This document shows, piece after piece, positions 3,788 through 52,068 of a stretch of 57,729 bases of DNA (position 1 is the stretch's first letter; every line of letters begins with the position of its first letter). The notes below the pieces were generated by a model, which worked only from the letters and a program-made list of their open reading frames with translations, was not told the DNA's origin and made no database searches. A program made the translations under genes and the position numbers. This stretch comes from a virus (Duplodnaviria; Caudoviricetes), in the IMG/VR virus record IMGVR_UViG_3300042465_001383, positions 1 through 57,729 of that record. The stretch is one strand, 5' to 3'.

Positions 3788-4285
3788 TTACTGAACCCTC
3801 CACTTTCCCACAATTTCACCAGTCTTACGCATCTCTGTTAGCCTTGATTGTGCTAAATCCTGAAAGTTTTGATTTCTTGCAGCGTCCGTGATGCACGGGT
3901 GCAGTCTACCATGTTCTGCAGCAGAAAGAATGCGAAGATTTCCCCAGTGGTTGTTTTGATGGTCCCCATCCATGTGGTCAACTTGCGACCCCTCAAACAG
4001 TTCGCCGACAAAGGCCTGTGCCACAAGCCGATGAACCAAAAACGATTTGCAACAAACGTTTCTAGGCGATCCATCGCGTAGCTTAACTTCAACATAAGGC
4101 AAAGTTCTACCTGTCGCTGAACGTTTTTTGACAGACAAAAGCATGATTTTTTCTGGAACAGGAACCATGCTGCCTGATCTGCCACGACGAAAGCGCGCCA
4201 AAGATTTGACGCGACCGTGATCGCTTACAGCATAGCGGCCATCATAACCATGAATTGGCACCCAGCGTTCGTCTAGCAGTTCCAT
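3788..4285 (-). CDS. NUMOD4-HNH homing endonuclease
   Basis: W.PI.GY.GRY.VSD.GRVKS (NUMOD4) and VHRLVA.AF...VDH.DG...NN...NL (HNH). Confidence 0.92.
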   Translation of the reverse strand: MELLDERWVPIHGYDGRYAVSDHGRVKSLARFRRGRSGSMVPVPEKIMLLSVKKRSATGRTLPYVEVKLRDGSPRNVCCKSFLVHRLVAQAFVGELFEGSQVDHMDGDHQNNHWGNLRILSAAEHGRLHPCITDAARNQNFQDLAQSRLTEMRKTGEIVGKWRVQ

Positions 4286-7521: not shown

Positions 7522-8433
7522 TTACGAGGGGGTTGAGCCAAAGATGGAGCGCCAGTTATAGTATGCGAACGAGTAACGCTCGTAGCCTTTAACCAACAAG
7601 TTATCTGTGACAAAATCCACCTGCATATCTGTTTCAAACTTTACGCGCTCCATATATGAAAGCCCGTCAATGTTTGTCAGAAGGAACCAAGCCGATGCCG
7701 AAGTGAAGAAGTCGTTCACCATGTAGCCCTCTGGCAGACCGCCAGCGGTGGACATGATCGCGTTCACATCGTTGTCAGCAGTGCCAGGGCGCAGTTCCGT
7801 CTTTGTCAGGCGGATTGCCACTGGTTCCAGTTGCGGCGGGACAATCAACTTCCGGCCACGGGCGAAGACCTTCAGGCCTGCCTGATCTTTGAAGTTGGTA
7901 CGAATGGAGATCATGCCGTTCAGCAGGGTCGATTCGTTTAGTTCCACTTGGGTCGTGGGGGTGTTCGCAACCGTGCCACCGTCGATGGGGTGTGCGGTCG
8001 AGAGCAGTGCCACACCGTCACCACCGATTGACGCGTTGTAGGTCGTCGCGGTGTTGAAGATGTTTGCCGCGTAGATTTCCTTGGTCTGCTGGAAGCTTTC
8101 GATCAGACCGAGGTTTGACGGCTGGAACTGTGTTTTGTACAGGTTGTCGTCGATGGCCTTGCGAGTGATCGCGTAGCCCAGACCGATTTCGACGTGTTCT
8201 TGGTTGTAGATGTAGCGTTCGCCAGCGCCGTTGTCGAAGGAGGTCTGGCCGCCTTCGGTCTTCAGTTGTGCGAAGCCCAAGAAGCGCATCTCAGCGGTGC
8301 GTTCCAGCGCCATCTTCGAATTGTGCTTGGTGAACATCTTGTCGTACTGAGATGGGATCATCTCGTACTTGCCCTCAATCCCACGGAGGCCGGGGAGCAG
8401 AAGGTCTTTAATCGCAGAAAGATTAACAGCCAT
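7522..8433 (-). CDS. Major capsid protein (Mu gpT-like)
   Basis: LLPGL....G..Y, GY.IT..AI.DNLY, GDGV.L.S.AHP, KLIVPP.L, GTADND.N, ERYSF...WR..FGS signatures. Confidence 0.93.
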   Translation of the reverse strand: MAVNLSAIKDLLLPGLRGIEGKYEMIPSQYDKMFTKHNSKMALERTAEMRFLGFAQLKTEGGQTSFDNGAGERYIYNQEHVEIGLGYAITRKAIDDNLYKTQFQPSNLGLIESFQQTKEIYAANIFNTATTYNASIGGDGVALLSTAHPIDGGTVANTPTTQVELNESTLLNGMISIRTNFKDQAGLKVFARGRKLIVPPQLEPVAIRLTKTELRPGTADNDVNAIMSTAGGLPEGYMVNDFFTSASAWFLLTNIDGLSYMERVKFETDMQVDFVTDNLLVKGYERYSFAYYNWRSIFGSTPS

Positions 8434-9531: not shown

Positions 9532-9785
9532 GCCAAGGCGACCGTCAAGGAAACGGCCCCTTGGCTTGCGGTGTTAGCTTCTGGCTCTAGGTAGAAACAG
9601 GCACTTGCCGCATTACCGCCAGCTACCCGCTGGTCAGGGATTTGAAGAGAGGGTTTTCTTCACCCAGAGCGCATGGACCGTGGTGTCCTGCCTTTTCTAC
9701 CCCCCCACTGGGCTTGATCTTGTGCAGGCCTCTCCCTGCGGTCACCGTTCCGACCTTACGGTCTGGCTGTGGGAGCGACCCACAG
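9532..9785 (-). ncRNA. Candidate structured non-coding RNA downstream of tRNA
   Basis: At least six stems including long-range GGUAGAAA-AGGCA/UGCCU-G-UUUCUACC and a GUAA tetraloop hairpin; no credible ORF. Confidence 0.55.
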
Positions 9786-9790
9786 TTCTC

Positions 9791-9865
9791 TGGTTGCGGA
9801 GGGAAGAGTTGAACTTCCGGCCTTTCGGGTATGAGCCGAACGCGCTACCACTGCGCCACTCCGAC
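9791..9865 (-). tRNA. tRNA with CAT anticodon (Met or Ile2), CCA encoded, imperfect acceptor stem
   Basis: GTCGGAG TG GCGC AGTGGTA GCGC G TTCGG CTCATAC CCGAA AGGCC GGAAG TTCAACT CTTCC CTCCGCA A CCA. Confidence 0.9.
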
Positions 9866-9939
9866 AAAATGGTTGACCGTCTTTCCGGCCTGTCAGCCCC
9901 GCTACGCAGAGCGTGTCCCAACCACGAGACTGCGACAAA

Positions 9940-9968
9940 GTGTTACTGGATGTCGCCGGATTTGTCAA
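9940..9968 (-). promoter_or_regulatory. Promoter for tRNA/ncRNA unit
   Basis: TTGACA-N17-TAACAC, about 75 nt upstream of the tRNA. Confidence 0.55.
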
Positions 9969-10098
9969 CGGCTGGCATGAACACTGACACATGCGGCTCC
10001 AGTTTGTCCCAAGCTTCTTGGATGGCGGGCGTCCCCTCTGATCTGATGACCTTACGGAGACGCTCTATGTATTTGTAGATGGTGATGGGCTTAATCAT
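9943..10098 (-). CDS. Hypothetical protein, 51 aa (MIKPITIYKY...), not in ORF track
   Basis: ATGA overlap with the upstream stop; open to TAA at 9943. Confidence 0.55.
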   Translation of the reverse strand: MIKPITIYKYIERLRKVIRSEGTPAIQEAWDKLEPHVSVFMPAVDKSGDIQ

Positions 10099-10604
10099 TC
10101 GGGGATCGGGATCGCCTCGTACTTCTTGTTGATCTTGACCAGAGGGTCGCCCTTGTTCGTACGATCAAACTCGCCGCCCTTAGCATTGGTCAACTGGGCT
10201 TCCTTGTCGCGCATCTGCATACGCGCCTTGCGAAGTTCAGCGTTCTTGGCCTCTTGGGTGATTTCCAGCGGGCGCTCCATCAGCACCATGCCCTTGCGGG
10301 TGATCTCAGCGCCCTTGTACCCCATTGGCATCAGTTCGGGGTGGCGTGACGCCGGAACGCTTTCCCAGCCCTTGCGGGCCAGCGCCACTTGGTGGGCGGG
10401 GTCTTCAGCGCCAAGGATGGTGCGGACCTTCCATTCGTAGGACCAGCCGTCTGGGATGATGCCCAGTTCGATGTAATATTCGTCGGTGCCATCGTCGTTT
10501 AGGTCGGCAGCATGGCCGCGCAGTTCTGCGGCACGGCGGGCAGCGCGGTCGCGGGGATTTTCATCTGCGGTAGCGTTGGGGCGCATTTCGGGGCGGAGTG
10601 TCAT
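10095..10604 (-). CDS. Conserved head-module protein
   Basis: P.GW.Y.W.......G.ED.......GWE.VP...HPE....G.VLMERP pattern; lies between scaffold and capsid genes. Confidence 0.75.
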   Translation of the reverse strand: MTLRPEMRPNATADENPRDRAARRAAELRGHAADLNDDGTDEYYIELGIIPDGWSYEWKVRTILGAEDPAHQVALARKGWESVPASRHPELMPMGYKGAEITRKGMVLMERPLEITQEAKNAELRKARMQMRDKEAQLTNAKGGEFDRTNKGDPLVKINKKYEAIPIPE

Positions 10605-11446
10605 TGAATTTTCCCTTCCTTCTTGAGGGCCACTTTGTTCTTGGCATAATCCTCTGGTTTCATTCCCATCATCTCGGCCATCTCACGCTCTGCGGCAGAA
10701 AGACGCACCACGTTAGAGCTTGCAGATTGGCCTCCGCGATTTGCAGGTGCAGCGGCGGGGGCAGCATCACGGCGGCGAACGGCCTTTGCAGCGTACTGGT
10801 CATCAGTGTCGTTCTGCGCGGGTTTAGGCGTCACCTTTAGGGTTTCTTCGATGGCATCAAAGTATTCGTCGGTGTCTGTGGGGATGCCATCGGCCACGGC
10901 AAGGTTGTGGGCGGCGATCATCTTGGCGTTCAGGCGCTGGTCACGCACAAATTCGGGGTGCTTGCGGACCCAATCGGCGCTGCGGGGGGACAAACGGCTG
11001 GCAAAGTCTTCCACGGGGTCCAGCGGTGCCATTTGTGGCTCAGGTTGGCGCGGTGCGTTCTCCATTGCCTCCTTGCCGTTGTTCAACTGGAGCAGTTTGG
11101 CCTCGTTGGCCGACATTTCCCGTTGAATTTTGGTCGCGCGGTCAAAATCACCACTTTGCAGGGCGTAAGTGTGCGCCTGACTAAGCAATTCGATGTCCCG
11201 ATTGACCGTGTCGATGGCATTTACCACCAGTTGCAGGTTTGTGTCGTCCACTTCGCTCTTGGCGCGGTGGGTTTCACGGTTTGCCTGATGCACTTGCTGT
11301 TCCGCCCTGATGCGGGCGGCCTTTTCTTCGGACAGTTGGCGCTTTAGCTCCGTGATATACGCAGGTTCTTCTTCCTGCGGGGCCTCAACGGCCTCTGGCT
11401 CCTCTTCTGGGGCTAGTTCCAGCGTGATGTCATCATCTTCTGTCAT
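10601..11446 (-). CDS. Capsid scaffolding protein
   Basis: Acidic N-terminus, coiled coil, C-terminal VRLS.AE.E.A...GM..E.YAK; start re-called to 11446 (GGAG SD). Confidence 0.75.
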   Translation of the reverse strand: MTEDDDITLELAPEEEPEAVEAPQEEEPAYITELKRQLSEEKAARIRAEQQVHQANRETHRAKSEVDDTNLQLVVNAIDTVNRDIELLSQAHTYALQSGDFDRATKIQREMSANEAKLLQLNNGKEAMENAPRQPEPQMAPLDPVEDFASRLSPRSADWVRKHPEFVRDQRLNAKMIAAHNLAVADGIPTDTDEYFDAIEETLKVTPKPAQNDTDDQYAAKAVRRRDAAPAAAPANRGGQSASSNVVRLSAAEREMAEMMGMKPEDYAKNKVALKKEGKIQ

Positions 11447-11457
11447 GGTTTTGCTCC

Positions 11458-11847
11458 TCAATACACAGAATCGGGGTTTTCGACCCGACCTTTGATGTTC
11501 ACGTCATCAAAAATCCGGCAAAGGACGTTGTTTACGGTGATGGACCAGCCCTCAGACGGGCGGAAAATCAGCCAATCATGCTCGTGGAACTCCATTCCGT
11601 TGAACCAATTGCCGTCCTGTTCGAACGCCAAGGGGCCACGCTTGACCAACAAACCAACCTTGGACTGGTATTTGTCCTCATCAACGTGGCTGTCCGTAAG
11701 GATTAGGCCACTTTTAGTTTTGGTGGGGCGCAAATAAGTGGCTAAAAGCACTTGATTGTGGAACAATTCTACATTAGAAATGTCACCAAGTGCATCTAGG
11801 ATGGTTAGCTTTGGGTCTGTTTCGTGCAACATGGGCATATGCGGCAT
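11458..11847 (-). CDS. GroES-like co-chaperonin
   Basis: KTKSGLIL mobile-loop motif, VGL.VK.GP.A, ITVN...CRI.DD; start re-called to 11847. Confidence 0.8.
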   Translation of the reverse strand: MPHMPMLHETDPKLTILDALGDISNVELFHNQVLLATYLRPTKTKSGLILTDSHVDEDKYQSKVGLLVKRGPLAFEQDGNWFNGMEFHEHDWLIFRPSEGWSITVNNVLCRIFDDVNIKGRVENPDSVY

Positions 11848-11857
11848 GGTTAATCCT

Positions 11858-12064
11858 TCAGAGGGTTTTGTTGACGATTGTCTGGGCGTCATCGCAAAGT
11901 TCGATGACCAAGTCCAACGCGGCGATCTTACCGACCGCCTCGCGGTATGCTTCCATTGACGTGATTGAATGCCCCCCAACAAGGTTGGTGGCAAGATGAT
12001 GTCGCTCTTCGCTTATCAGCCTTCGAAGCTCACGTTCGAAAACGCTGCTTGCGGTCTGGATCAT
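11858..12064 (-). CDS. Small conserved helical protein
   Basis: L..G.......Y...VG.I..L pattern typical of the gene preceding phage GroES. Confidence 0.65.
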   Translation of the reverse strand: MIQTASSVFERELRRLISEERHHLATNLVGGHSITSMEAYREAVGKIAALDLVIELCDDAQTIVNKTL

Positions 12065-12147
12065 TCTAATCACTCATCATTGGTGTGACCCCCGACAACA
12101 TCTGGAGAAATGCCGGAGGCCACGATTAGGCGCAGGGAGGGCGCGCC

Positions 12148-13848
12148 TTATGCGTTCTTACCATACTCGTCAACTTTTTCAAGGCGACCTTTGCCACCGC
12201 CTGCCCCGTACTTCATTTTGGGGTAAACCTTACCGCCATCCTTGCGTCCCATCATTGGCATCGGAGCGCCAGGAGGGGGCGGCGTGGGGCCAACACCAGA
12301 CGCACCAGCCATAGCAGCGCCTAGACCTGGCGGCAGCGACATGCGGGGGGGCGAGGGCGGGGGCATCATCGGGGGCGGACCACCAACGGGCGGCATCGGG
12401 GGCATCGGCGGTTGAATACCCATAGGCTTGTTGGCGCTGTGGGGCATTACGTTGATGCTGATGTTCGTGGTCCCCTTGGCACGGCCACCAGTGGCACGGG
12501 CCATGCGGCTACCGTCTTCCTTCTTCGCGGTCTTGGCCGATTCCTTGAAGTCTTGAGCATCAGGCGCGCCTTTGGAGCCAACCTTACGCATCTTTTCCCC
12601 AGAACCGTTCTCAATGCGCTCACGCTTGGCATTGATGTTGGCATAAAGGCCGCCACCATCCTTGTAGCCAGCCGAACCGCCGCAGGCTTTGCAGGCGCAG
12701 TCTTTTTCGTGCATCGCCTTGCCGCCAGACTTATAGCCAGACGCCATCGGGTTCATGGCGGGCATCATGGGGGAAGAAGGCATACCCATGCCCATACCCA
12801 TGCTACCGCCGCCCATCTTGCCAGTGCGACCGCCGTCTTTCATGGTGGACTTGCCAGTTGCCGTGTCAATGATCTGGTGGGCGTAGCTGCCGTAGTTCAT
12901 ATCGTTGCGCTCACGCGATTTGCGCGCACCGTTAAGGGTGTTTGCTTTTCCGACAACCTTGCCAGTTTTTTGGTGAACAATTTGGTATGGGCCTTTTTTT
13001 GGCTCGTCATCACCATTCATACCGCCGCCATCAGCTTTTGCGGTGCGACCGCCAGACTTCATCTTGCCGATACCGTCAGCAGCAAAGTCTGGAACCTTCT
13101 TGCCGTCTTTTTCGACCATCTTCAATTTTCCGCCAGCAGCTTTTGCGGATTGCATGTCATGCTTCTTGTCGGCGCTGGAAGCTTCCCACTCTTTCATGGA
13201 CATGCCGCGCTTGGCTGCCATCTTCTTGTCTTCCATCATGTCCTTGGCAGAACCTTCAAAATTCTCAGCCTTGCCGCCATGCTTGCGGCGGGTCTTGTCT
13301 CCCATGTCGCGCAGGGCTTGACGGCCCTCGTTGGCCTTGTCGGCGCGGGTTTGTGCGTCCAGTGCGGCTTGTCCACGGTCCATCTCAGCCTTGCTGGGGC
13401 GGCCCGACATGTCAGGCATAGGCTCAGACGCTTCGCCAGTTTTGCTGGGGCCAACGGCGTCCAGCTTGGCTGCGCTGTATTTTTTGTAGTTCGGGTCGTT
13501 AGACAGCAAACCGCCGCCAAGTTTGGCAACGCGGCCACCCTTCTTCAGGCCACCAACGTGCTTGACGCCTTCGCGCTCTTCGTTGGCGTCTTTCTGATTG
13601 GTGTTGGCCAGACCGACCTTCTGTTCAAACCCACGCGGGGAGCGTGACAGGTTGGTCTTGGCTTCAGCGCCATCAACCTTACCACCAGCCTTGAACGCGC
13701 GGCGCGAGATCGGGCGCATACCCGTCTTGGCGTCCGCGTTCAGCTTTTCATCTGGGGTCCAAGTGGAGCTATCCACCTTCCCGCCAGAGCTTTCGATCAT
13801 GCTCTGGGCCTTCTTGTTTTTTGCTGCGCGCAGCGCCTTGAAATCCAT
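12148..13848 (-). CDS. Lys/Gly/Met-rich virion-internal polyprotein-like protein with xxxGG repeats
   Basis: 12 copies of [FYMLRK]-[KA]-x-G-G; Pro-rich C-terminal region; head-module location. Confidence 0.75.
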   Translation of the reverse strand: MDFKALRAAKNKKAQSMIESSGGKVDSSTWTPDEKLNADAKTGMRPISRRAFKAGGKVDGAEAKTNLSRSPRGFEQKVGLANTNQKDANEEREGVKHVGGLKKGGRVAKLGGGLLSNDPNYKKYSAAKLDAVGPSKTGEASEPMPDMSGRPSKAEMDRGQAALDAQTRADKANEGRQALRDMGDKTRRKHGGKAENFEGSAKDMMEDKKMAAKRGMSMKEWEASSADKKHDMQSAKAAGGKLKMVEKDGKKVPDFAADGIGKMKSGGRTAKADGGGMNGDDEPKKGPYQIVHQKTGKVVGKANTLNGARKSRERNDMNYGSYAHQIIDTATGKSTMKDGGRTGKMGGGSMGMGMGMPSSPMMPAMNPMASGYKSGGKAMHEKDCACKACGGSAGYKDGGGLYANINAKRERIENGSGEKMRKVGSKGAPDAQDFKESAKTAKKEDGSRMARATGGRAKGTTNISINVMPHSANKPMGIQPPMPPMPPVGGPPPMMPPPSPPRMSLPPGLGAAMAGASGVGPTPPPPGAPMPMMGRKDGGKVYPKMKYGAGGGKGRLEKVDEYGKNA

Positions 13849-13865
13849 GGTGCGATCCTCTGAGG

Positions 13866-16800
13866 TTATCCGGCGTCCCGGTCGTGACCGAGAGCATACA
13901 ACGAAGTGAGGGATAATGCACGTTCGATGTTTTTGGCTATGCCGCCACGGCTCAAGGTTTCTGCCACTGCACCAATTTTGCCTTTTTCGTCTTCCTTGTG
14001 GTCAACAATTCTTGGCGTTTGCTTGGTGGAAAACTCAGAGTTCATGTTTGGCAAATGGGATAGGAAGCGGTTGAGATGTTCAGGGCTGTCAGATGAAGCG
14101 TACCCTTTGAAATTTCCGCTATCCCAAATCTGGGCAACATGTTTGAAGTGCTTCTTGAGAACCCTCTCCATTTCTCCAGGTGGGACTTGGAGGTCATGCA
14201 TACCAACAACGGCGGCTTCTTTGGCTTTTTGCTCGGCTGCAAACTCGTCTTGCTTACCATGCAAGATCGCTGCTGCCTTCTTTGCAATGTCTTCTTTTGT
14301 AAAGAAACGTTCTTTGTAAGCGTCCTTTTTGGCTTCGTTTGCTGCAAATTCGTCTTGCGGCAAGCCTTCACCTGGGACAAACTTTTCTTCGTTGATCAAG
14401 ATACCATGCGGGTGGAGGAGTTCTTTTGCCCTTGCAACCTGTGCGTGGCGGTTGTTGTTCATAAACTGGAAAACCATTGCTTCGTGAGCAACGTCAAACT
14501 TACGATCAGGCGTGTAATACTTGATTGGCATATCTGCGTATGGATTGGGGCGAGGAACCCCGTTTTTGTCATGCAAAATTGGGTCTTCAGTCCACGCTGT
14601 CTGCCCTTCGTCCTCTTTGTTGCCGTAAGCACCAAGGGCATATTCAGCCCCTGGCACTTTGGAGATAGAATGGAAAGATTGATGCATTGATGGATTGGGA
14701 TCAAGTGCAACAGTACGCATACGACCACCAGTCAAAGCACTGATTGACTTATTCAAAGCACCTTCTGATGCCCCAATGTCAATCATATCTCCACCATCGG
14801 GGAAGGTATTGGCGATTGCATGTCCAACGCCTTGCTGAACCTCACGAAACCCAGGGATTGACATGCCAATATGGTCGTCAAACTTGCCAAGATGCTTGTG
14901 ATATTCTTGTGAAAATGGCGAAATTCCAGAAATGTCAAAGGCAGGCTTGTAACCTTCCTTTGACGCTGGCGCGCCAGTCAGACCTGACGTTATGTTGGAG
15001 AAGAAACCTGTAAAATTTCGGCCATTTCCTAGAAGACCGGATGATCCTTCGCCAGAAATTCCTTCCATTCCTTCAGGCTCACTTGGCGCGGCGGGTGTTG
15101 TGTCTCCCCCTTTTGAAAACGCTTGACGTGGTCCCGATACATTGTTTCCAAGTAAGCTAGATGCTCCTTGTCCGACATTTGGCTGAACGGCTTGCGGCGT
15201 TCGGATGCTTTGTTCGAGTTGTGGGTCTGTTTTGAGGCCGTGCTTTTGTGCGAACTCGCGGTCAACCGCTTCGAGCCGTGGGGCGAGAACGCTTGAAACG
15301 AATTCGTGAACATCGGGTCGTCCTGCGGCACTAAGCCTGCGTCTATAATCTTCGCCATTTTTGTTTACCTTCCAGTCGTTTTCAACAAGATTACCATCGG
15401 ACGCGAAGGCGCGTTTTGTTGCAGTGTGTGTGCTTGGAACAGCAGTAGACATTACGCTATCGGTGGCTTTATGAAAACCCCTTTGGTCGTTTTGATGCTG
15501 ATCAGAAAAGTTTAAAATTCTAACCGTTCTGTTGTTAACGGGAATAAGAGATGCACCAGGCGATGTTTTATCCAAAGACTGACCAATGTTTCTGATGTGA
15601 TCATCGGTTAAGTCCTTGTCAAATTGATATTCAATCCCGTTTGCTTTGGTAATTTGAGGATTGTAAAACGGACGGTGATAGCCAACTCCATCTTGCTTGT
15701 GAAGCAAGCCTTTGGCTGTAGCGTAAATGTCCAAAAGATGTTTGGACGGCTCGTCAATATCTGGTTGCTGCAACGCCGCCTTGATGCGAGTAGATGCCAT
15801 CTGGGTATGAGTAGCGGGGTTGGTTTTGCCCTGCCAGTAGCCAGGAGCGTCCTTAGACCCTGGGGACATGATGCCAAGGTATTTTGCCAAAAGATCGTTT
15901 CCGTCTTTGTCCTGCAAAGCCTTGGACGCCATTCCGTGATATTCGGCTTTAGCTTCTGGCGACAAATTTTCAATGCCATTTAGGTGAGCAACATCCTTAC
16001 TTGGGGCAGATTCCCAAGTGATGTGTGCTAAATTCTGGTCCATGAAATCAGAAAAGTCTTTTGCGCTTTCCAGAATATGCTTTCTAGATACCTTCTTGCC
16101 AAGCGCCATATCGCGATGCAGTTCTGCAATCTGGTCTTCCGCGCCCTCATTTGGCGTAAAGCGCGGCTTGCCTTTTGGCCCTATCTGCATTGTGGCCATG
16201 CCCTTGCTGATGGCGGCCTTCTTGGCATCGTCCGCAACACCTTCCATGCGCGTTTTAATGGCCGTCCAAATAGCAGCCTGCACTTGGTGCGGTCGCCATC
16301 CCAATTGATCGGAAAGACGTTTTGTTATTTTTTCCATAAAGTCGTATTTGCCAGACGACCCAATGGCAACATCTGGGAAGCCGAACGCATGTGCCATCCA
16401 AAGGTCTTGCGTTGACCCCTGAAGGCGAGATGGGTCAATGTGAACCATCAGGTTGTTGTAGAAATTGTTGGTTTTGCGGCCTTCAAAAGGAATGCCTTCA
16501 TTCATCAACAAATGGGCTTTGAGGTCGCGATCCGCCGTTGCAATGTTTTCGTAAGATTTAGGCTTGTGGCGGGCAATCAAAAACCTTTTCCCGCTGTCAT
16601 CCAAAGGCACCTTGGTAATGCCAGCGTTTTCGCCACCCAGAGATTTAACATAGTCACTTGACTCTTTGATGTTTTTGAATGTCCGATCACGATCTACGAT
16701 GTCCCCATCCCAAAGCTTGCTGCCAGCTTTGGCGCGGTTGTATGCTTTAATCGCATTGCCAGTGTTAACAGGCACGGTTGTTTGGGGGCTGTAGATGGCA

Positions 16801-17105
16801 ATCAGTTGTGCAAACTTGTCAGCAGCATCCTTGTCACCCCCAACGTATTGCAGGATGCGCTTGGAGCTTTTTTCATACCAATACTTGCCAGGCTTTCCTT
16901 GCTTTGCCAAATCCAAAAGGTCACCGTACATGGCTTGGATTGATTGTTCTGGCGGCAAGGACTGGTATCTCTGATGCATCCTGCCAGTTCTTGTTTCACG
17001 AACCTTTGCAAGCTGATTGGCAAACCCAGTCATTTCTTCTGGGGTTGGCGGCACCTTGGTTGATGGGTTTGTCAGGCTAAGTGCCTTGTTTACAATGCCT
17101 GCCAT
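13866..17105 (-). CDS. Large polyvalent protein: HhH-glycosylase-like domain + middle domain + CmoA-like SAM-dependent transferase
   Basis: WY...A..SPQ..V..N...K..NF..N..D.WM..QA..W; FDDHI..SIPGF...DIGASEG...FQF...EEKF...W..GNF. Confidence 0.7.
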   Translation of the reverse strand: MAGIVNKALSLTNPSTKVPPTPEEMTGFANQLAKVRETRTGRMHQRYQSLPPEQSIQAMYGDLLDLAKQGKPGKYWYEKSSKRILQYVGGDKDAADKFAQLIAIYSPQTTVPVNTGNAIKAYNRAKAGSKLWDGDIVDRDRTFKNIKESSDYVKSLGGENAGITKVPLDDSGKRFLIARHKPKSYENIATADRDLKAHLLMNEGIPFEGRKTNNFYNNLMVHIDPSRLQGSTQDLWMAHAFGFPDVAIGSSGKYDFMEKITKRLSDQLGWRPHQVQAAIWTAIKTRMEGVADDAKKAAISKGMATMQIGPKGKPRFTPNEGAEDQIAELHRDMALGKKVSRKHILESAKDFSDFMDQNLAHITWESAPSKDVAHLNGIENLSPEAKAEYHGMASKALQDKDGNDLLAKYLGIMSPGSKDAPGYWQGKTNPATHTQMASTRIKAALQQPDIDEPSKHLLDIYATAKGLLHKQDGVGYHRPFYNPQITKANGIEYQFDKDLTDDHIRNIGQSLDKTSPGASLIPVNNRTVRILNFSDQHQNDQRGFHKATDSVMSTAVPSTHTATKRAFASDGNLVENDWKVNKNGEDYRRRLSAAGRPDVHEFVSSVLAPRLEAVDREFAQKHGLKTDPQLEQSIRTPQAVQPNVGQGASSLLGNNVSGPRQAFSKGGDTTPAAPSEPEGMEGISGEGSSGLLGNGRNFTGFFSNITSGLTGAPASKEGYKPAFDISGISPFSQEYHKHLGKFDDHIGMSIPGFREVQQGVGHAIANTFPDGGDMIDIGASEGALNKSISALTGGRMRTVALDPNPSMHQSFHSISKVPGAEYALGAYGNKEDEGQTAWTEDPILHDKNGVPRPNPYADMPIKYYTPDRKFDVAHEAMVFQFMNNNRHAQVARAKELLHPHGILINEEKFVPGEGLPQDEFAANEAKKDAYKERFFTKEDIAKKAAAILHGKQDEFAAEQKAKEAAVVGMHDLQVPPGEMERVLKKHFKHVAQIWDSGNFKGYASSDSPEHLNRFLSHLPNMNSEFSTKQTPRIVDHKEDEKGKIGAVAETLSRGGIAKNIERALSLTSLYALGHDRDAG

Positions 17106-17106
17106 A

Positions 17107-19143
17107 TCACTTCCCCTTGGGTTTCAGCGCCAATGTAGCAGCTTTGCCGTCTTTGGTGAAGCGGCGTGTTAGGGCGATGGCGGCAGACACATCACCGCCG
17201 TTGCTAAAAGCAAAATCTGTTTTTTTTCCGTACACAGGGTTCTTTGCATAAACCAGCGGACCAATGTGCAAAGCCTCGTCCGCAGCCATGACAGGCTCTT
17301 GTGTCTCGCGGTCGTAGAAGTACGAGTGCCGCTCTGGGTCCATCCCAACCTGACGCCACTGGGGGTCGTTGTGGATCGTCTGCGACAGCGCAAACGCATC
17401 CTCCGGCGTTGTCTTCTTCCAGTTGCCATGAACGGTGGCGATTGTGGATTTGGGCTTGCCGCTTGCGATGTTCAGCGCGCCCGTTGGGTGGACCCCAAAG
17501 CGCGGGTTGCCGATGTGCGCCACGCTGTCGTAGCCGATCACCTCACCTGCCGTGAAGTCTGTCTTTGGATGGTGAACGGACACCACCCATGTGTTCTTCT
17601 TCTCGTACGCCGGAATGTCGAGGCGCACCGCCACAGGCGTTCCTTCCTCCAGACCTCTTGGAGCAAACGCCTTGGGCTGCTTGTCCTTGGTCAGCGCATC
17701 GTGAACTTGCTCATCGGACGCAGGGGAAACTGGTGCATCGTACGGTGAGACAGGCTTTATCTTGTTGACCATCTCAGCGTGGGCTTCGCGCGAACCCGTG
17801 CCAGCTTTGATCGCCTGTGCAGACGGCCAGAGGGCCTTTTCGCGCAGAGAGCCTGTCGCTGACCCGCCTTCGGCCTTGGTGATGTCGGGGTCGTTGGGGT
17901 CAAACGTGCCTTGGTTGCCCGTGGCGCTCTTTACTTGCTCCGGCTTGAATGCAACGTACTCTTTCGACCCGTCAGGGCGGTGGGCAATGATGCCGTCGAA
18001 GCCAGAGTTGCGGATTGTTTTGTGGATATTCTGCTGACCAAACTGGTTTACCATTGCGCCATGTTGGGTGTCGGTCAGAAACAAGTCTCGAACTGTCGCG
18101 GTGCCGTCATCCAGCTTCTTAGTCAGCTCGGCGGCTCTTGCCTTGTCTTCGTCGTTTATGCCTCCAAGCCACAAGCCCTGCTTTTTTATAGCGTCCTTGA
18201 TGTGGTCGCGCCATGCTGGATGCCGCAACGTATCGTCTGTAAAAGGCTGCTTCATGCTGACGTGCAGCTTCATCACTTGACCATGCGGCTTGGCATCAGC
18301 CTGATCGGCGCGGATGCCTTGGGCAAAGTCGCTTGCAACCTTTGGGCTGTCAGACAGGTAGATTCCAGCGCCGTAGCTGCCATATTCTGAGGGTCTGAAC
18401 GTGCGGAAATCCTGAGCGGCGATGTTTTTGTTAGTGGCCACTTGGTCAATATCAGAGGTCCATTTTCCATCACCGTGATACTTGTGGTCCTCCACAATCT
18501 TGGGCGCGTTACCGTGGTACAGCACCTCCGGCACATCTGGGTGGTTGCCCTGCATGAACGCCACCTTGCCCCCACTTTCGGCGTGGATGCGACCCCCATC
18601 AGCTTTCTTGACTACGATACTGGGATTGATGACGGCCACCCCCATGTCACGCATGGAATTAAAATGGACAGCGTCATAACCAGCCTCTTTTGCCCGTGCA
18701 ATGGCCTCGTTTGCCGCATCCCGCAAGTTTTCCCCTTGGCGCAAGCTGCGAAGCAGCGGTCCCTTCTTTCGACCCGTGATCTGCGAGAACTCCCCTGTGC
18801 CTTCGGTCAAAACTTTTGCATGGCTTGGCAGTTCAAATTGACTGATCTGATCACCATAAAGACGCGCAACATCCTCATGTGGCGTTCCGAAAAGCAGACC
18901 CTCACCGATGCCTCCAGTGATGCTCTCTCCGCTGTCGTTTGTGCCGCGATATAGGTTCATTCCACCTGTATCGCCATTCTCACGCCCACCACCAGCGTGG
19001 ACGGCGCGGGGGACGTTGGGCAGGTATTTGGACGGGGCGATCTGGCCACCAGCGCGAGTGACAGCGGTGCGGGCGCGGGCTTTGTCAAGAAGGCCAGCCG
19101 CTGTCAGCTTGGCAGAACGGATCGCCTTGTCCTTATCCATCAC
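17107..19143 (-). CDS. Polyvalent protein with two ART-PolyVal-like ADP-ribosyltransferase domains and a third domain
   Basis: LYRGT...GYDAV...VINP and LYHG...F..F...G.GIYL.D....A..FA...GFDGI....EYVAF.PEQVKSA.GN.GTFD. Confidence 0.8.
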   Translation of the reverse strand: MMDKDKAIRSAKLTAAGLLDKARARTAVTRAGGQIAPSKYLPNVPRAVHAGGGRENGDTGGMNLYRGTNDSGESITGGIGEGLLFGTPHEDVARLYGDQISQFELPSHAKVLTEGTGEFSQITGRKKGPLLRSLRQGENLRDAANEAIARAKEAGYDAVHFNSMRDMGVAVINPSIVVKKADGGRIHAESGGKVAFMQGNHPDVPEVLYHGNAPKIVEDHKYHGDGKWTSDIDQVATNKNIAAQDFRTFRPSEYGSYGAGIYLSDSPKVASDFAQGIRADQADAKPHGQVMKLHVSMKQPFTDDTLRHPAWRDHIKDAIKKQGLWLGGINDEDKARAAELTKKLDDGTATVRDLFLTDTQHGAMVNQFGQQNIHKTIRNSGFDGIIAHRPDGSKEYVAFKPEQVKSATGNQGTFDPNDPDITKAEGGSATGSLREKALWPSAQAIKAGTGSREAHAEMVNKIKPVSPYDAPVSPASDEQVHDALTKDKQPKAFAPRGLEEGTPVAVRLDIPAYEKKNTWVVSVHHPKTDFTAGEVIGYDSVAHIGNPRFGVHPTGALNIASGKPKSTIATVHGNWKKTTPEDAFALSQTIHNDPQWRQVGMDPERHSYFYDRETQEPVMAADEALHIGPLVYAKNPVYGKKTDFAFSNGGDVSAAIALTRRFTKDGKAATLALKPKGK

Positions 19144-21452
19144 TTCTTACCTCTTTGAACCTGCATGGCCAGCTTGACAGCATCGGCGGCGTGGTCGCGT
19201 TGCTGCATGTCTTTTTCGTGCTGCATCCGAACCGCATCGTTCATCTGGTCGCGGTCCATGTCCATCTGCTTGGCTTGCAGGTCTTTCTCGCGGTCCAGAT
19301 CGCGGTTTTCGTCGTTGGCCATGTCGCGGCGGGCCGACAGTTCCATCTGCTTGGCCTTGTTCTGCTCGGCCATCATCTTGATCTGGAGTTCCTGCGGGTC
19401 TTTGCCAGCGGGGCCAGCCACACCAGTGGGGGCCGCAGGTTGCTGCGCCTTGATCATGGCGGCCTGCGCCCGCATCGTGTCGGCGTCAGCGCGCTGGTGG
19501 TCGATCTTGAGGTCTTCCATGCCCTTGAGCAGTTCGGGCGATGGCTGATTGCGCTGGTCTTCGGGCTTGAGGAACTGCTCAGGGTTCGACCAGCCAATGG
19601 CGCGCAGGGCTGCCTTGTCGATGGCCAAGGCGTCATACATGTCGGGGCTGGCAGACTGCAACTGCTTGAGCGCCATAACCTTCATCAGGCGCTGGCTGTG
19701 CGAAGATGTGTTGGGGTCGGCCTGCGGCACCAGTTCCACATCGGTCAGGGCTTGCAGGAACAGTTCCTCGTTCCACACAATGGTGGGCTTGCGGTTGCGC
19801 TCCCAGAAGCTTTCGGGGTGTTCGCGGAAGCATTGCACCAGTAGCGAGAACTCCTCGGCCTGCGCGCTGTGCATCCGCTTATGGACCGCGTTCAGGATTT
19901 TGGTGGCCTGTTCAATCATGGCCAGCGTGGTACCAACGGGCGCATCCGCGCGGCCCTCGCCCACCTGCAACTCGGACGTGCCGCCCACGCGCATCCCCGT
20001 CTCGCTCATGTTCTGCACCAGCGACATCAATGCACCAGACGGCTCCTTGTAAGGCAGCGGCATGATGGCATCGCCAATCTTCTGGCCGCCCGTCTTGACC
20101 TGCGCCCCACCGCCAGGTGGTACGCGGAAGATGTTGGTGTTCTGCCGCGCGCCCGTGTCCGAGATTAGGAAGCCAGGGAAGTTGGCGTACATGCCAGCGT
20201 CGAGCAACTCACGCCACGCGGCGGTGATCGCGTTGGTGGTATTGCCAAGGATGTGCAGAAGGCCGATGTCGTAGAACCCAAGCCCTGGCACAAAGGTGTA
20301 CTTGACGAACGTGGTGCGGGCTTCCGGCAGCATCCCCGTGTCGGGCTGGTCGTAGTTGCGGGTGATGGACAGAATTTCACGGGACGACACGTCAATCGTC
20401 ACGCGGTAGGGGATTTCCAGCCCCGTGATCTTGCCCTTGAATTTGTGTTCAAACTTCTTGATGTCCAGTTCGCAGTAGATTTCGTAAATCTCGCGGTCGC
20501 GGTCGTCAGGGTTGGCGGACGTGGTGGTGATGCCCTGCTGTGACGCCATTGCCTCTGCGGCGGCGTCCGGCGTGACTTCCATTGGGGTGGACAGGTCGAT
20601 GTCGCGGTAGACCCCAAGGATTTGCAGGCGCTTGACCGTGGACGGCTTGAGCATCACGCGGTGCGTGATCCGCATGGCGGTGGACAGGTCGGTGGCGCTG
20701 TTGTTGACGATCAGGTTGTCGGCATCCACGCTGTCGCTGGCCGGACGGTTCCGCAGCGGGCAGAAGAACACCTTCTTGAACGAGGTGCCACCGAAGCCCA
20801 GCAGCAGCAACATCCGATCTGTGTCGGGGTAGTATTCGCGGGCAGTGGCGGTCAGGAAGTGGTTCATGTCCTTCTCGAACGCATTGGCAAGGTCATCGCG
20901 CTGCGTGGTTGTGCCATTCGCATCGTCGCGGATTTTGACGGGGCCATCGGTGGGAAGAAGCTCGGACCGTGCGTTGGCCTGAAAGCGCAGCACGGCCTCT
21001 TGCAGCAACGGGTGCCGGACCTTGGACATGCCCTCAATCGGCGCGCCATCTCCCGTGCCTTGCAGGCCAGGGATTTCGATCTTCAGGCCCAGAAGCTTGA
21101 TGCCCTGCGCGCGGTCGTCAATCCACTCGGTGCGGCTCTCAAGGTCGTCAGCGACACCACGCAGCAAGTCTTCCGCGATGCGGGCCAGTTCGCTGTCGTC
21201 AATCTTGCTGGACAGGTTGTCAAACCAGCCCTCTGGCTGGCCTTCCACGTCTTCGGCGTCCGCGATGGGCTTGCCGTCCAGCGACAGGGTGATCGAACCA
21301 TCGCCGTGGTCGATCTTCATAATCGCGCCGTCTTCGTTGATCTCAGGGATGTCGGCAGCCTCATCCGCATTTTCGATGGTTACATCCATGTCGCCCAGTT
21401 GGTCTGGTTCGCTGTCGCCAAGGATGCGGATGTTGGGGTTCAAGCCAGACAT
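19140..21452 (-). CDS. Portal protein
   Basis: HPLL.EAV.RFQA.A..EL.P..GPVK, G..FKKV, L.DAG..AN..G, PLPYKEPS..L, APVGTTLA..EQ, P..DPN. Confidence 0.92.
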   Translation of the reverse strand: MSGLNPNIRILGDSEPDQLGDMDVTIENADEAADIPEINEDGAIMKIDHGDGSITLSLDGKPIADAEDVEGQPEGWFDNLSSKIDDSELARIAEDLLRGVADDLESRTEWIDDRAQGIKLLGLKIEIPGLQGTGDGAPIEGMSKVRHPLLQEAVLRFQANARSELLPTDGPVKIRDDANGTTTQRDDLANAFEKDMNHFLTATAREYYPDTDRMLLLLGFGGTSFKKVFFCPLRNRPASDSVDADNLIVNNSATDLSTAMRITHRVMLKPSTVKRLQILGVYRDIDLSTPMEVTPDAAAEAMASQQGITTTSANPDDRDREIYEIYCELDIKKFEHKFKGKITGLEIPYRVTIDVSSREILSITRNYDQPDTGMLPEARTTFVKYTFVPGLGFYDIGLLHILGNTTNAITAAWRELLDAGMYANFPGFLISDTGARQNTNIFRVPPGGGAQVKTGGQKIGDAIMPLPYKEPSGALMSLVQNMSETGMRVGGTSELQVGEGRADAPVGTTLAMIEQATKILNAVHKRMHSAQAEEFSLLVQCFREHPESFWERNRKPTIVWNEELFLQALTDVELVPQADPNTSSHSQRLMKVMALKQLQSASPDMYDALAIDKAALRAIGWSNPEQFLKPEDQRNQPSPELLKGMEDLKIDHQRADADTMRAQAAMIKAQQPAAPTGVAGPAGKDPQELQIKMMAEQNKAKQMELSARRDMANDENRDLDREKDLQAKQMDMDRDQMNDAVRMQHEKDMQQRDHAADAVKLAMQVQRGKK

Positions 21453-21511
21453 AGGTGGTCCCTTTCAAGGTAATGGCCGTGCCATTGTATCAGGCACGGC
21501 CACCCTTGTCA

Positions 21512-33193: not shown

Positions 33194-33360
33194 ATCTGGT
33201 AGACCCCCAGCAGCACCACGATGGCCGCCATGATCCCCAGTGGCACCGCCAGCCCCGTCATGTCTGGTGGCAGGCTTGCGATGGCCGTGATGGTGATCGC
33301 AAAGAACGCGGTGTATGCCACGATCACGATGGCCGCGATGGTTAGAAGTTGTGCGATCAT
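33184..33360 (-). CDS. Small two-TM membrane protein, 58 aa (MIAQLLTIAA...), not in ORF track
   Basis: TAATG coupling to the glycosyltransferase stop; two hydrophobic segments. Confidence 0.6.
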   Translation of the reverse strand: MIAQLLTIAAIVIVAYTAFFAITITAIASLPPDMTGLAVPLGIMAAIVVLLGVYQICG

Positions 33361-34295
33361 TATATTTCATCCTTGTGGTCATACCACCCACGATGGGCGG
33401 GAGTTTCTTCTGCCCTTTTGAATGGCACGGTGACCATCTCAAACTTCAACTTGCTTGGGTCAATGCCCTGCGCCTCGCGCCAGTCCCCCAACAACTTGAG
33501 CTGGTTGTTTCGGTACGGCCTGTAGTCAACTTGATGGTGCCAGCGGTTGAAGCGCCAGACCACCTTGGCCACATCGGGGTGCAGGTCGGCGATCATCTGG
33601 CTCTTGGGCAGCGTCCCCTCGGCGGCGTAGAACTCATCCGTGTTGCCGCCCTTCATGCGCTGCGTGGTGACCTTGCCGCACAGGAATGCGTTCATCTGGA
33701 TGGTGCAGTCGCCGCGCTTCAGCACCCGCAGTGACAGGTCTGTGTCCTCGTTGTACCGCCCGCGCCAGCGCAGCCCGATGTCGTTGCGGATCAGCAGGCA
33801 CGAATAGATGCGGGTGTTGGCCACGAATGGCGGCACGGCGTCCGTGGTCTTGCAGAATGAATAGTAATTCAGCCCCGCCAGTGGCACGTTCTCATACCGC
33901 CGGACAAACGCCTCGGTCGCCAGAAAGCCGTTTGGGGTGCGGACAGGCACCTTTTCGTTGCGGTACAGGCGGTGGAAGTCGTGCAGGTTGTCGTCCATCA
34001 CCCAGTGCCACGCCGCGCCCATCTGGATGGAATGGTCCATCGCAAAGTTGCGCGCAGCGCCTGGGCCTTTGCTCTTGCTGTCGCCCAGATCGTCGCAGGT
34101 GTCGTACTGGTCCAGATAGCTCTGCGGCATGATCAGCAGGCGGGCAGGGTCGATGTCGATGTTCTGCGCGTACTGGAACCACTGGCTGGCCTCGACCACC
34201 ACACGGTATGGCAGGCCGATCAGGTCCAACGCCTTGGCCGTCAGACACAGGTTCCAGCGGTTCTTTGACACGATATAGATCGGGCTTACTTCCAC
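33360..34295 (-). CDS. TET-associated glycosyltransferase (TAGT/GREB1-like, GT-A fold)
   Basis: PIYI.SK.R, G.G.ARN, W..DDN, RIYSC.LI, WRGRYNEDTDL, KGGNT, R.HH.VDY; GTG start at 34295. Confidence 0.8.
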   Translation of the reverse strand: MEVSPIYIVSKNRWNLCLTAKALDLIGLPYRVVVEASQWFQYAQNIDIDPARLLIMPQSYLDQYDTCDDLGDSKSKGPGAARNFAMDHSIQMGAAWHWVMDDNLHDFHRLYRNEKVPVRTPNGFLATEAFVRRYENVPLAGLNYYSFCKTTDAVPPFVANTRIYSCLLIRNDIGLRWRGRYNEDTDLSLRVLKRGDCTIQMNAFLCGKVTTQRMKGGNTDEFYAAEGTLPKSQMIADLHPDVAKVVWRFNRWHHQVDYRPYRNNQLKLLGDWREAQGIDPSKLKFEMVTVPFKRAEETPAHRGWYDHKDEI

Positions 34296-34495
34296 CGCTT
34301 TGCTCCCACGCCTGACGGCTCCGCCTGCGGGTACCACGCGCTCTTGGTCTTGGCGGTCAGGGGCTGACCCAGCGCCTTGGACAGCGCGATCAGGTCTTCC
34401 TCGGTCGCCACCCGCACGTTGATTGTGGCAAACGGCTTCTGGCTCGGCTGATCAAAGTCCGGCATGTCAAGCCAGTGCATCTGGGGATCATTCAT
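34286..34495 (-). CDS. Small companion protein of TAGT-like genes
   Basis: W..MP.F.Q.......V.....D.......Q..T.KTK..WYP; overlaps the TAGT start. Confidence 0.65.
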   Translation of the reverse strand: MNDPQMHWLDMPDFDQPSQKPFATINVRVATEEDLIALSKALGQPLTAKTKSAWYPQAEPSGVGAKRWK

Positions 34496-43550: not shown

Positions 43551-43789
43551 GGTTCTTGATTACGCTGAACATGCCATCCCGCAAGGGCGAACTGGTCCAC
43601 CAAGTGATCTGCGAATACCCTGTCAGCAGCATCGAAGAACTTTTGGAAGACCTGAACGAACGCGATTTCATCATCGCTGAAGAGTTCTACCGCAAGTCAG
43701 ACAACGCGGGCTTCTATTCTGTTGGCATGGTTCTGCTGAACACCATGCACATCGGCAAGATCAAGGCCGAGGTTAGCCGCGACAGTTAA
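43547..43789 (+). CDS. Hypothetical protein
   Basis: ATGA coupling; stop overlaps the convergent gene. Confidence 0.65.
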   Translation: MRFLITLNMPSRKGELVHQVICEYPVSSIEELLEDLNERDFIIAEEFYRKSDNAGFYSVGMVLLNTMHIGKIKAEVSRDS

Positions 43790-47344: not shown

Positions 47345-47358
47345 GATCAAGACCTTTC

Positions 47359-52064: not shown

Positions 52065-52068
52065 CTCG

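Follow-up and report, generated by a model that had tools for sequence, protein, structure and literature searches.

What is the role of a short Gly-Gly motif that recurs in the large proteins encoded beside the portal gene of an uncultured tailed phage? The window, by which we mean the whole stretch of DNA that was analysed, is the IMG/VR virus record IMGVR_UViG_3300042465_001383 in its entire length (57,729 bases, estimated to be 97% complete), a podovirus-like genome with genes mostly on the minus strand. Between the portal gene and the scaffold-like and capsid genes, three genes code for proteins of 678, 1079 and 566 residues, referred to here as the cargo proteins. In the original prediction, an xxxGG motif shared by these and three further structural genes was taken to mark polyproteins that are packaged, cut or bound at the motif and injected as separate anti-host enzymes. 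Such mosaic polypeptides of virion modules, the polyvalent proteins, have been proposed to accompany the DNA and to be split into parts by processing (Iyer et al. 2017, PMC5512222). They are thought to be the phage's first strike on host defences. We found that a seven-residue junction and terminal motif, acting at the protein level, is a solid, lineage-wide feature of the portal-adjacent polyvalent cargo and of three further probable internal virion proteins. As a sequence rule for module boundaries it allows these mosaic proteins to be parsed into functional units and yields a list of candidate injected effectors.

All motif instances listed in the original prediction were found in the window proteins. 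The 678-aa protein contains HAGGG (residues 49-53), KADGG (180-184), HAESGG (187-192), KAEGG (423-427) and FSNGG (646-650), and the 1079-aa protein FSKGG (663-667) and LSRGG (1051-1055). Outside the cargo genes, FASGG at 264, YADGG at 273 and AARGG are encoded by the 1064-aa gene, RKSGG at 599 by the 652-aa gene, and RATGG, RKAGG and MAAGG by the 348-aa gene; LAMGG is present in the primase. The 53 window open reading frames (ORFs) of at least 100 residues were compared with within-protein shuffles, using the regular expression of the original prediction. Ten of them had at least one match; four were enriched and four further ORFs had single background matches. For the 566-aa protein the predicted count of 12 copies was reproduced, with 1.3 expected, and was reached in 0 of 2000 shuffles. 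The other enriched proteins were the 678-aa (3 observed vs 0.41 expected, p 0.0085), the 1079-aa (3 vs 0.59, p 0.018) and the 348-aa protein (4 vs 0.55, p 0.004). The two genes described as coding for ejection proteins were not significant on their own (1064-aa protein, 2 vs 0.89; 652-aa protein, 1 vs 0.54), so that of the six structural genes said to carry the motif four are enriched within the window, although the sites in the remaining two are conserved in homologues. One match in the 1079-aa protein, KSLGG at residue 154, lies inside a DUF7178 domain and is a background match. These p-values overstate the case because the regular expression had been chosen after the data were seen, and the same expression was hence run on unseen sequence sets.

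A portal-based scan of IMG/VR gave 100 relatives, of which 80 loci were kept. In the related loci the portal gene is followed by one to four large ORFs (the first one of 649-1921 residues), by a protein of the 566-aa type and by a GroES-like gene. We defined as cargo the post-portal ORFs of at least 250 residues, 131 in number including the three of the window, and 107 after removal of near-duplicates (at least 90% identity over at least 80% of the shorter protein); in loci without a recognised GroES-like gene every downstream ORF was counted as cargo, and the few scaffold-like proteins included in this way only dilute the signal. The 107 non-redundant cargo proteins (81,597 residues) matched the regular expression 416 times, compared with 57.7 ± 7.5 in shuffles, the highest of 300 shuffles giving 80, whereas 336 distinct control ORFs located upstream of the portal in the same loci gave 24 matches for 24.0 ± 4.9 expected. 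In an independent set, obtained with a profile of the 60-residue N-terminal leader of the cargo, 127 cluster representatives were recovered among 1.84 billion proteins (118 at E ≤ 1e-10), and these leader-bearing proteins matched 424 times vs 70.3 ± 8.3.

The consensus derived from 1,057 GG sites was [KRFY]-[KA]-x-G-G-[KR or any]-[VIA], positions on either side of the GG being informative, and the motif was refined to the seven residues [KRFY]-[KA]-x-G-G-x-[VI]. Double copies with a period of 8 are frequent, as in Y-A-S-G-G-R-V-G-K-A-G-G-G; a spacing of 8 was counted 47 times vs 2.6 expected in proteins of the 566-aa type and 32 times vs 4.9 in the remaining cargo proteins. The Gly codons of the motif are GGC and GGT in every combination, resembling the Gly codons elsewhere in the cargo genes, and one and the same seven-residue peptide is found in as many as 7 DNA versions. 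This synonymous variation shows that selection acts on the protein, and the mixed Gly codon pairs and multiple DNA versions per peptide rule out a DNA-level recombination signal at the junctions.

Variants of the motif are found at some distance from the window phage. In Pelagibacter phage HTVC027P, the portal of which is 33% identical to that of the window and which is the closest cultured phage with the motif, the post-portal slot contains small basic ORFs with F-K-K-G-G, Y-K-V-G-G-R-V and Y-K-K-G-G-S-V, one of them ending in F-K-N-G-G-K-K. With the strict expression, two distant polyvalent proteins, p60 of Pseudomonas phage F116 (1 match vs 1.0 expected) and gp54 of Roseobacter phage CRP-9 (1 vs 0.97), were not enriched, which indicates that the motif is specific to this lineage and not common to all polyvalent proteins. 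The CRP-9 gp54 protein (locus L130, 4114-8301), a portal-adjacent protein of 1395 residues from an unrelated marine podovirus, carries a variant seam, [FM]-N-x-G-G-x-V, and a C-terminus with A-A-Q-G-G-L-M-A and then a run of Lys; junction motifs of their own form may exist in other lineages.

To locate the motif relative to the modules, we took the ends of BLAST alignments between mosaic cargo proteins as module borders, which gave 395 breakpoint clusters for the non-redundant enzyme-bearing proteins. Breakpoints lay within 3 residues of a motif in 35.4% of cases vs 3.6% for random positions, and within 10 residues in 48.4% vs 10.2%, as expected if the motif sits at module boundaries. Relative to the first Gly, the high-scoring segment pairs (HSPs) start preferentially at -3/-2 and end at +3/+4, indicating that the seven residues form a seam common to both neighbouring modules. 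The breakpoints of the 678-aa protein at 185, 429 and 652 are found beside the motif Gly residues 183, 426 and 649. An AlphaFold2 (AF2) model of this protein (63-row alignment) was confident only for residues ~190-420, the ART-PolyVal domain, the remainder being too poor for use; the predicted local distance difference test (pLDDT) score was below 50 at 159-181 and 183-188, and these stretches together with the low-confidence stretch 424-433 correspond to junctions. Two motifs therefore fall at the edges of the sole confident domain, as the prediction would have it, and the remaining boundaries of the 678-aa protein could not be mapped in this way. Taken with the alignments, this places [KRFY]-[KA]-x-G-G-x-[VI] at the borders of every enzymatic module, of the N-terminal leader and of the C-terminal tails.

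The first cargo protein (678 aa, 17107-19143, minus strand, as are all genes and gene parts located below unless otherwise stated) exhibits matches to PF18760, ART-PolyVal, at residues 244-414 (E 1.2e-21) and to PF25735 at 515-624, and is laid out as a leader, an unverified region termed 'ART1', the ART-PolyVal domain, an L5-gp82-like domain and a C-terminal tail. The leader (residues 1-53, 18985-19143) consists of the helix 'DKAIRSAKLT', modelled by AF2 as a helix at residues 4-30, and of the stretch 'APSKYLPNVPR-x-VHA-x-GG'; in a 26-sequence alignment it is 55-86% identical among 25 relatives, and all similarity ends at the invariant GG (G52, G53). A double motif, KADGG-RIH-AESGG-KV (residues 180-192, 18568-18606), stands directly before the ART-PolyVal domain, the confident AF2 domain beginning at ~190. 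KAEGG (423-427, 17863-17877) follows this domain directly, and HSPs to relatives end at 427-433. FSNGG (646-650) with the conserved tail 'DVSAAIALTRRF...KPKGK' occupies 17110-17208, and the tail is kept at the C-termini of the first cargo proteins of relatives. A first ART domain placed by the original prediction between leader and double motif was not supported: the 'ART1' region (residues 55-185) had no Pfam match even at E ≤ 10 and no homologue among the 131 cargo proteins.

The second cargo protein (1079 aa, 13866-17105) starts with an 'IVNKALSLT' helix, followed by DUF7178 (PF23802, residues 68-286, E 2.1e-11), a middle region, a methyltransferase-like region (phrog_4752 tRNA methyltransferase, 741-813) and a C-terminal tail; homologues in loci L026 and L027 are 86% identical. 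FSKGG (663-667, 15105-15119) precedes the methyltransferase-like region, and LSRGG (1051-1055, 13941-13955) the conserved tail 'IAKNIERALSLTSLYALGHDRDAG', which is found at the C-termini of second cargo proteins in eleven related loci (L005, L007, L009, L012, L021, L025, L035, L032, L046, L054 and L056). The third protein (566 aa, 12148-13848) is basic and rich in Gly, Lys, Pro and Met, with 18 GG runs besides its motif copies, a net charge of +41 and a match to phrog_16028 (E 9.5e-24). Twenty proteins of this type were found; the 19 complete non-redundant ones have 332-741 residues, 7-14 motif copies and net charges of +25 to +65, and are probably disordered. A 45-residue mini-module of the 566-aa protein (residues 400-444, window 12517-12651, phrog_16028) occurs in 76 phage records, mostly of marine T7-like cyanophages, pelagiphages and roseophages, where it lies within small hypothetical proteins.

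The domain repertoire of the relatives was examined with Pfam in the 45 largest of 85 non-redundant enzyme-bearing proteins and in 54 of the 127 leader-bearing representatives. The 45 proteins contained ART-PolyVal (25), Peptidase_M15_3 (12), InPase (9), L5-gp82 (4), GNAT (3) and VanY (1), with PBECR5, PcfJ and DUF7178 once each, and 6 had no family at all; the 54 representatives contained ART-PolyVal (42), M15_3 (19), VanY (4), PBECR5 (3) and CHAP (2). Mosaicism is extreme, the same modules being present in different orders. The window itself combines ART-PolyVal with an L5-gp82-like domain in one protein and DUF7178 with a methyltransferase-like region in another, in a virus record and between portal and scaffold-like or capsid genes. 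The cargo genes are thus of the polyvalent type, as had been predicted, with ART-PolyVal in the window and ART-PolyVal, InPase, PBECR5, GNAT and M15/VanY/CHAP domains in the relatives. The space between the portal and the GroES-like gene is a cargo slot in this lineage, filled with highly mosaic polyvalent proteins and one very basic protein. Because cell-wall hydrolases and cytoplasm-directed enzymes share one polypeptide, and given the polyvalent repertoire, the cargo proteins are most likely packed in the head and ejected, to act at entry.

Three proteins encoded towards the other end of the record carry the motif as well. For their families, duplicates and rows at least 95% identical to the window were dropped, and the kinship of the remaining sequences means that the counts show conservation and not independent events. 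Enrichment was found for the 348-aa family (95 vs 16.4 expected, n=36) and the 1064-aa family (92 vs 28.6, n=31); the 652-aa family gave 18 vs 9.5 (n=19), a value also reached by the highest shuffle. The 837-aa (22 vs 17.8, n=42), 115-aa (0 vs 1.1, n=29), 160-aa (0 vs 2.4, n=27), 180-aa (6 vs 3.2, n=19) and 354-aa families (0 vs 3.9, n=4) were not enriched. In the 348-aa protein (51048-52094), 'AALRTARA-x-GGKV' is located near the N-terminus, with R-A-x-G-G-K-V kept in 33/35 aligned rows, and 'MA-x-GG' precedes a C-terminal conserved block. RKSGG of the 652-aa protein (gene 45392-47350; residues 599-603, 45542-45556) corresponds to [KR]-x-GG-[RA]-V in 19/19 aligned homologues.

The 1064-aa protein (gene 47359-50553) matches the DNA ejection protein family phrog_4287 at residues 52-277, and its FASGG-AVEG-YADGG(G) stretch (264-277, 49723-49764) is an alignment joint. 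At this joint 11/25 aligned relatives contain a Peptidase_S74 self-cleaving module, which was confirmed by Pfam (PF13884) in 3/3 proteins tested (L114:7276-12129, L119:8730-12833 and L128:9019-12633), indicating that separation at the joint belongs to the biology of the 1064-aa family. The window protein itself has no Pfam family and neither an S74 nor a tail-lysozyme domain; some relatives also carry a phage tail lysozyme domain.

Several further observations concern the 348-aa protein. Its two strongly conserved blocks, with invariant His, Asp and Ser residues and a repeated G-[SE]-Y-V-I-P-x-[DE], are separated by a variable Gly-rich insert, and relatives of 155-201 residues lack this insert. 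One block loosely resembles G-E-F-V-F-T-K-E of the lambda gpH C-terminus (hhalign probability only 1.8%). An enzyme was suspected from the invariant residues; an AF2 model of a short homologue (34-row alignment) had a mean pLDDT of 55, too low for use, and no family was found for the protein. In the ESM Atlas the 348-aa protein, like the 169-aa protein of the head module, matched only unnamed viral clusters.

A second feature shared by the cargo proteins is a terminal amphipathic helix. The N-terminal types are D-K-A-I-R-A-A-K-L-T, D-x-V-K-R-A-L-D-L-V-S and D-F-K-A-L-R-A-A-K, and many C-termini read, past the GG motif, x-V-x-x-A-L-x-L-T-R-R-F... or N-I-E-R-A-L-S-L-T-S.... With a regular expression of the A-[LI]-x-x-[AL]-x-L-T type ('A-L-x-L-T'), written after looking at the sequences, the helix was found in the first 25 residues of 51/107 cargo proteins vs 0/336 control ORFs, and in the last 45 residues of 24/81 complete cargo proteins vs 1/336 controls. 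All three window cargo proteins have it at the N-terminus, the helix sites of the window being 17110-17193, 17060-17105, 19090-19143 and 13800-13848. The helix may be a common address label, serving as a loading or docking signal. A complex prediction for the portal and the 60-residue leader scored 0.00 and was counted neither way.

Which function, then, does the motif serve at these seams? The reading that we favour, tentatively, is that it directs proteolytic processing, the cut probably preceding [AK]-x-G-G, as it does in the tape-measure protein pb2 of phage T5. Cleavage of pb2 after R1127 has been mapped by mass spectrometry, and the cut bond lies between a hydrophobic stretch and the muralytic module (Linares et al. 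2023, PMC10038345). In the T5 record this bond falls within F-V-P-R/A-E-G-G-M-M-Y (the slash marks the cut), which is one of just 2 places in the 1,219-residue protein where the strict motif is matched; a post hoc calculation by hand puts the chance of such a coincidence at ~0.01. R-A-x-G-G, as P-R-A-[ENS]-G-G or G-R-A-S-G-G, is found in 5/5 aligned Demerecviridae tape-measure proteins, down to ~37% identity, and a basic residue followed by A-x-G-G at the boundary before an enzymatic or terminal module is also what we found in the window. Phage lambda gpH is converted to gpH* by a cut in its Gly-rich C-terminal region, at a site and by an enzyme described as unidentified (PMC12617516); this region holds FATGG (residues 733-737), YATGG and MRDGG (3 vs 0.54, p 0.022). 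The resemblance to both systems would consist in an ejected virion protein cut at a domain boundary by an activity that has not been identified, at a Gly-rich or R/A-E-G-G site; the differences are that pb2 and gpH are siphovirus proteins with one site each, cut before A-x-G-G in T5, and that no supported homology of their C-termini to the 348-aa family was found.

By analogy with pb2, the bond between the first and second motif residues would be cut, leaving a basic or aromatic residue at P1 followed by A/K-x-G-G. Such cutting would release the enzymes individually, free of the terminal 'A-L-x-L-T' docking helices, and reduce the 566-aa basic protein to small DNA-associated peptides. The protease would be encoded by the host or be an unrecognised phage activity, as for T5 pb2 and lambda gpH. 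The position of the cut would differ from the one first proposed, after the GG; the sole experimental precedent that we found, T5 pb2, is cut before A-x-G-G instead. Binding at xxxGG, the other half of that proposal, is equally possible.

Several results weigh against processing. Pfam and PHROGs profile searches of the 40 larger window ORFs found no protein-processing protease (prohead, zincin, clan CE or other) and no prohead protease gene in the head module, HExxH is absent from all 82 greedy-called window ORFs of at least 50 residues, and Pfam found no protein-processing peptidase in the 45 and 54 related cargo proteins, in which the peptidases present (M15, VanY, CHAP) are cell-wall enzymes. 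The head module looks T7/P22-like, with a scaffold and no protease. A comparison by hhalign of the 348-aa family with the tape-measure C-termini of T5 and lambda gave probabilities of 0.1% and 1.8%, that is, no supported homology; the likeness to T5, of motif only, concerns a single mapped site in a protein that is not related; and of the three model phages sampled (lambda, T5 and T7), T7 has no motif enrichment in gp14, gp15 and gp16. Lack of a protease does not by itself exclude cleavage, since T5 and lambda proteins are cut without an identified phage protease. The placement of the motif also weighs against cutting: it lies within the last 16 residues of 9/81 complete cargo ORFs vs 6/336 controls, where cutting would remove only a few residues (two to ten), and where relatives split modules into two genes it stays at the end of the upstream gene. 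Both placements are easier to understand for a tag than for a cutting site.

It is almost as likely that the motif is never cut and works as a hinge or docking tag, a flexible basic C-terminal tag on each module that binds a repeated internal partner such as packaged DNA, the inner capsid wall or the portal and core. The string of modules would then be packed and threaded through the portal as such, with the 566-aa protein as a multivalent DNA- or core-binding filler. Besides the lack of a protease in the window ORFs and related cargo and the modules that keep their motif at natural gene splits, this agrees with the complete motif, including the residue two past the GG, at the extreme C-terminus, with the high copy number and positive charge of the 566-aa-type proteins and with the enrichment of tandem period-8 units; the N4 virion RNA polymerase is, moreover, packaged unprocessed (Iyer et al. 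2017, PMC5512222). No binding partner has been identified, however, and flexibility or charge alone leaves unexplained the aromatic or basic residue three before the GG and the V/I two after it. The T5 case, in which one ejected protein at least is cleaved at a motif of this kind, also speaks for processing and against a tag.

That the motif is nothing but an evolutionary seam, a tolerated linker that spreads with exchanged modules and has no molecular role beyond domain separation, appears improbable. The extreme mosaicism, with varying module orders in proteins of 649-1921 residues, and the sharing of the seven residues by HSPs on both sides would agree with it. It does not explain why Gly codons and DNA differ for identical peptides, which leaves no recombination signal in the DNA, why the motif follows unrelated folds (leader, ART, M15, gp82-like and methyltransferase modules), why fixed sites are conserved in non-mosaic proteins, as in the 652-aa and 348-aa families (19/19 and 33/35), or why a variant is present in the distant phage HTVC027P. 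Least probable is that the motif imitates the mobile loop of GroES (K-x-x-G-G-hydrophobic) so that the cargo binds host GroEL, perhaps to be kept unfolded for loading, in a process to which the phage GroES-like gene beside the cargo slot would belong. The GroES-like loops of the lineage (KTKSGLIL in the window, by alignment with relatives, and the variants KTKGGIIL and KTAGGILL), the T5 site reading GG-M-M-Y and the mention in PMC5649160 of a study on the part of the host in T5 tail-protein cleavage (Zweig and Cummings 1973) among cases of host-chaperonin-dependent phage capsid or tail assembly go in this direction. What mostly follows the GG in this lineage, however, is K/R and then one V/I where a hydrophobic triplet would be called for, and relatives in which polyvalent cargo is scarce or absent, such as Caulobacter phage RW and HTVC027P, have the GroES-like gene too.

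Returning to the processing site, a broader version, which we regard as unlikely, would make [KRFY]/[AK]-x-G-G a general, unrecognised maturation signal of tailed-phage ejected proteins, including T5 pb2, probably lambda gpH and the podovirus effector arrays, cut by an activity that has not been identified and is possibly supplied by the host. If true, the motif would predict the cleavage site of lambda gpH, and a single packaged polyprotein could be the source of a set of separate effectors in a phage that has no protease gene of its own. Should the connection with the T5 site stand, the rule would also bear on the mechanism and position of cleavage in tape-measure proteins, lambda gpH among them. 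As to the original interpretation as a whole, the polyvalent type of the cargo, its location between portal and capsid genes and the marking of module joints have stood; cutting is a tentative reading.

Other viruses process or eject internal proteins in ways that can be compared with this cargo. Adenovirus protease and African swine fever virus (ASFV) pS273R are virus-carried clan CE cysteine proteases that cut after GG and mature virion core proteins, including small basic DNA-bound peptides. The consensus contains GG in both cases; here the GG is invariant and preceded by K/R/F/Y and then K/A, unlike the hydrophobic-x-G-G of these viruses, in which the upstream residue is hydrophobic. The analogy drawn in the original prediction lacks an enzyme, no clan CE protease having been detected by profile searches in the 40 larger window ORFs or in related cargo. 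Internal proteins of T4 carry a capsid targeting sequence that is removed by the prohead protease gp21 at an L/I-x-E site, and T4 also has small basic internal peptides. The cargo resembles them as packaged proteins with a shared N-terminal signal, cut off from the mature protein by a short site in T4, and differs in that no protease gene was found here and that the sequence of the N-terminal helix is unrelated to the T4 signal. T7 gp14, gp15 and gp16 and the P22 ejection proteins are podovirus internal proteins ejected by way of the portal. Like gp16, relatives of the 1064-aa protein have a tail-lysozyme domain; the T7 proteins, without motif enrichment, are not mosaic arrays of anti-host enzymes.

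The closest likeness is to the polyvalent proteins of phages and conjugative elements, which combine ART-PolyVal, InPase, PBECR, GNAT, methylase and cell-wall hydrolase domains as the present cargo does, and the processing of which has been proposed to occur via embedded zincin-like metallopeptidases, present in ~36% of them (PMC5512222). No such metallopeptidase was found in the window ORFs (by HExxH) or in the 45 and 54 related cargo proteins (by Pfam), and the junction motif, shared leader and terminal helices are not described in the main text of PMC5512222, from which, supplements aside, the words 'glycine' and 'linker' are absent. The concept of polyvalent proteins and the proteolytic release of their domains are thus already in print. 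As far as our literature searches reach, neither the junction motif nor the shared leader and terminal helices nor the correspondence with the T5 site has been described; no account of a Gly-Gly junction in phage internal proteins was found in the main texts searched, supplements aside.

The surrounding genes are arranged as follows. A large terminase gene (25292-23613) is followed by endonuclease VII, a 202-aa protein and the portal (21452-19140), then by the 678-aa, 1079-aa and 566-aa genes, the GroES-like gene and a 286-aa protein, and further by a 169-aa protein, a tRNA-Met, a 317-aa protein, the major capsid protein (8433-7522) and adaptor-like and tail genes. The other end of the record codes for an 837-aa structural protein, the 348-aa protein, a GNAT-like protein, the 1064-aa ejection-type protein and the 652-aa protein. 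No near-identical phage record was found, a megablast of window 12000-21500 against phage records having matched nothing. The portal protein (770 aa, 19140-21452; phrog_1216 portal, E 3.9e-23), the stop of which overlaps the start of the first cargo gene, is 76% identical to a portal of an uncultured freshwater-spring phage and 27-33% identical to those of Pelagibacter phages HTVC027P and HTVC023P, Caulobacter phage RW and Roseobacter phages CRP-901 and CRP-902. The major capsid protein (303 aa, 7522-8433) matches phrog_371 major head protein (E 5.9e-12). The 286-aa protein (10601-11461) had no family match in Pfam and PHROGs scans and is probably the scaffold, judging from its acidic, Gly-poor composition (G 2.4%).

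The GroES-like co-chaperonin (11458-11850, ~130 residues from MPHMPML; PF00166 Cpn10, E 5.8e-5, above the cut-off) is the first conserved gene past the cargo slot and is kept across the lineage, among others in HTVC027P, Caulobacter phage RW and CRP-902; the mobile loop in close relatives has a single Gly (K-S-G-L-I-L) instead of the usual G-G. The tRNA-Met (CAT) is located inside the head module at 9791-9865, between the 169-aa and 317-aa genes, and a plus-strand ORF at 9605-10078 is probably no gene because the tRNA overlaps it. An HNH endonuclease gene (3788-4285) lies within the tail and adaptor region, and a 354-aa protein with 30% Gly (43786-44850) adjoins tail-fibre-like genes. At 33360-34337, a homologue of beta-glucosyl-HMC alpha-glucosyltransferase (phrog_842, E 2.6e-46) hints at sugar-modified DNA.

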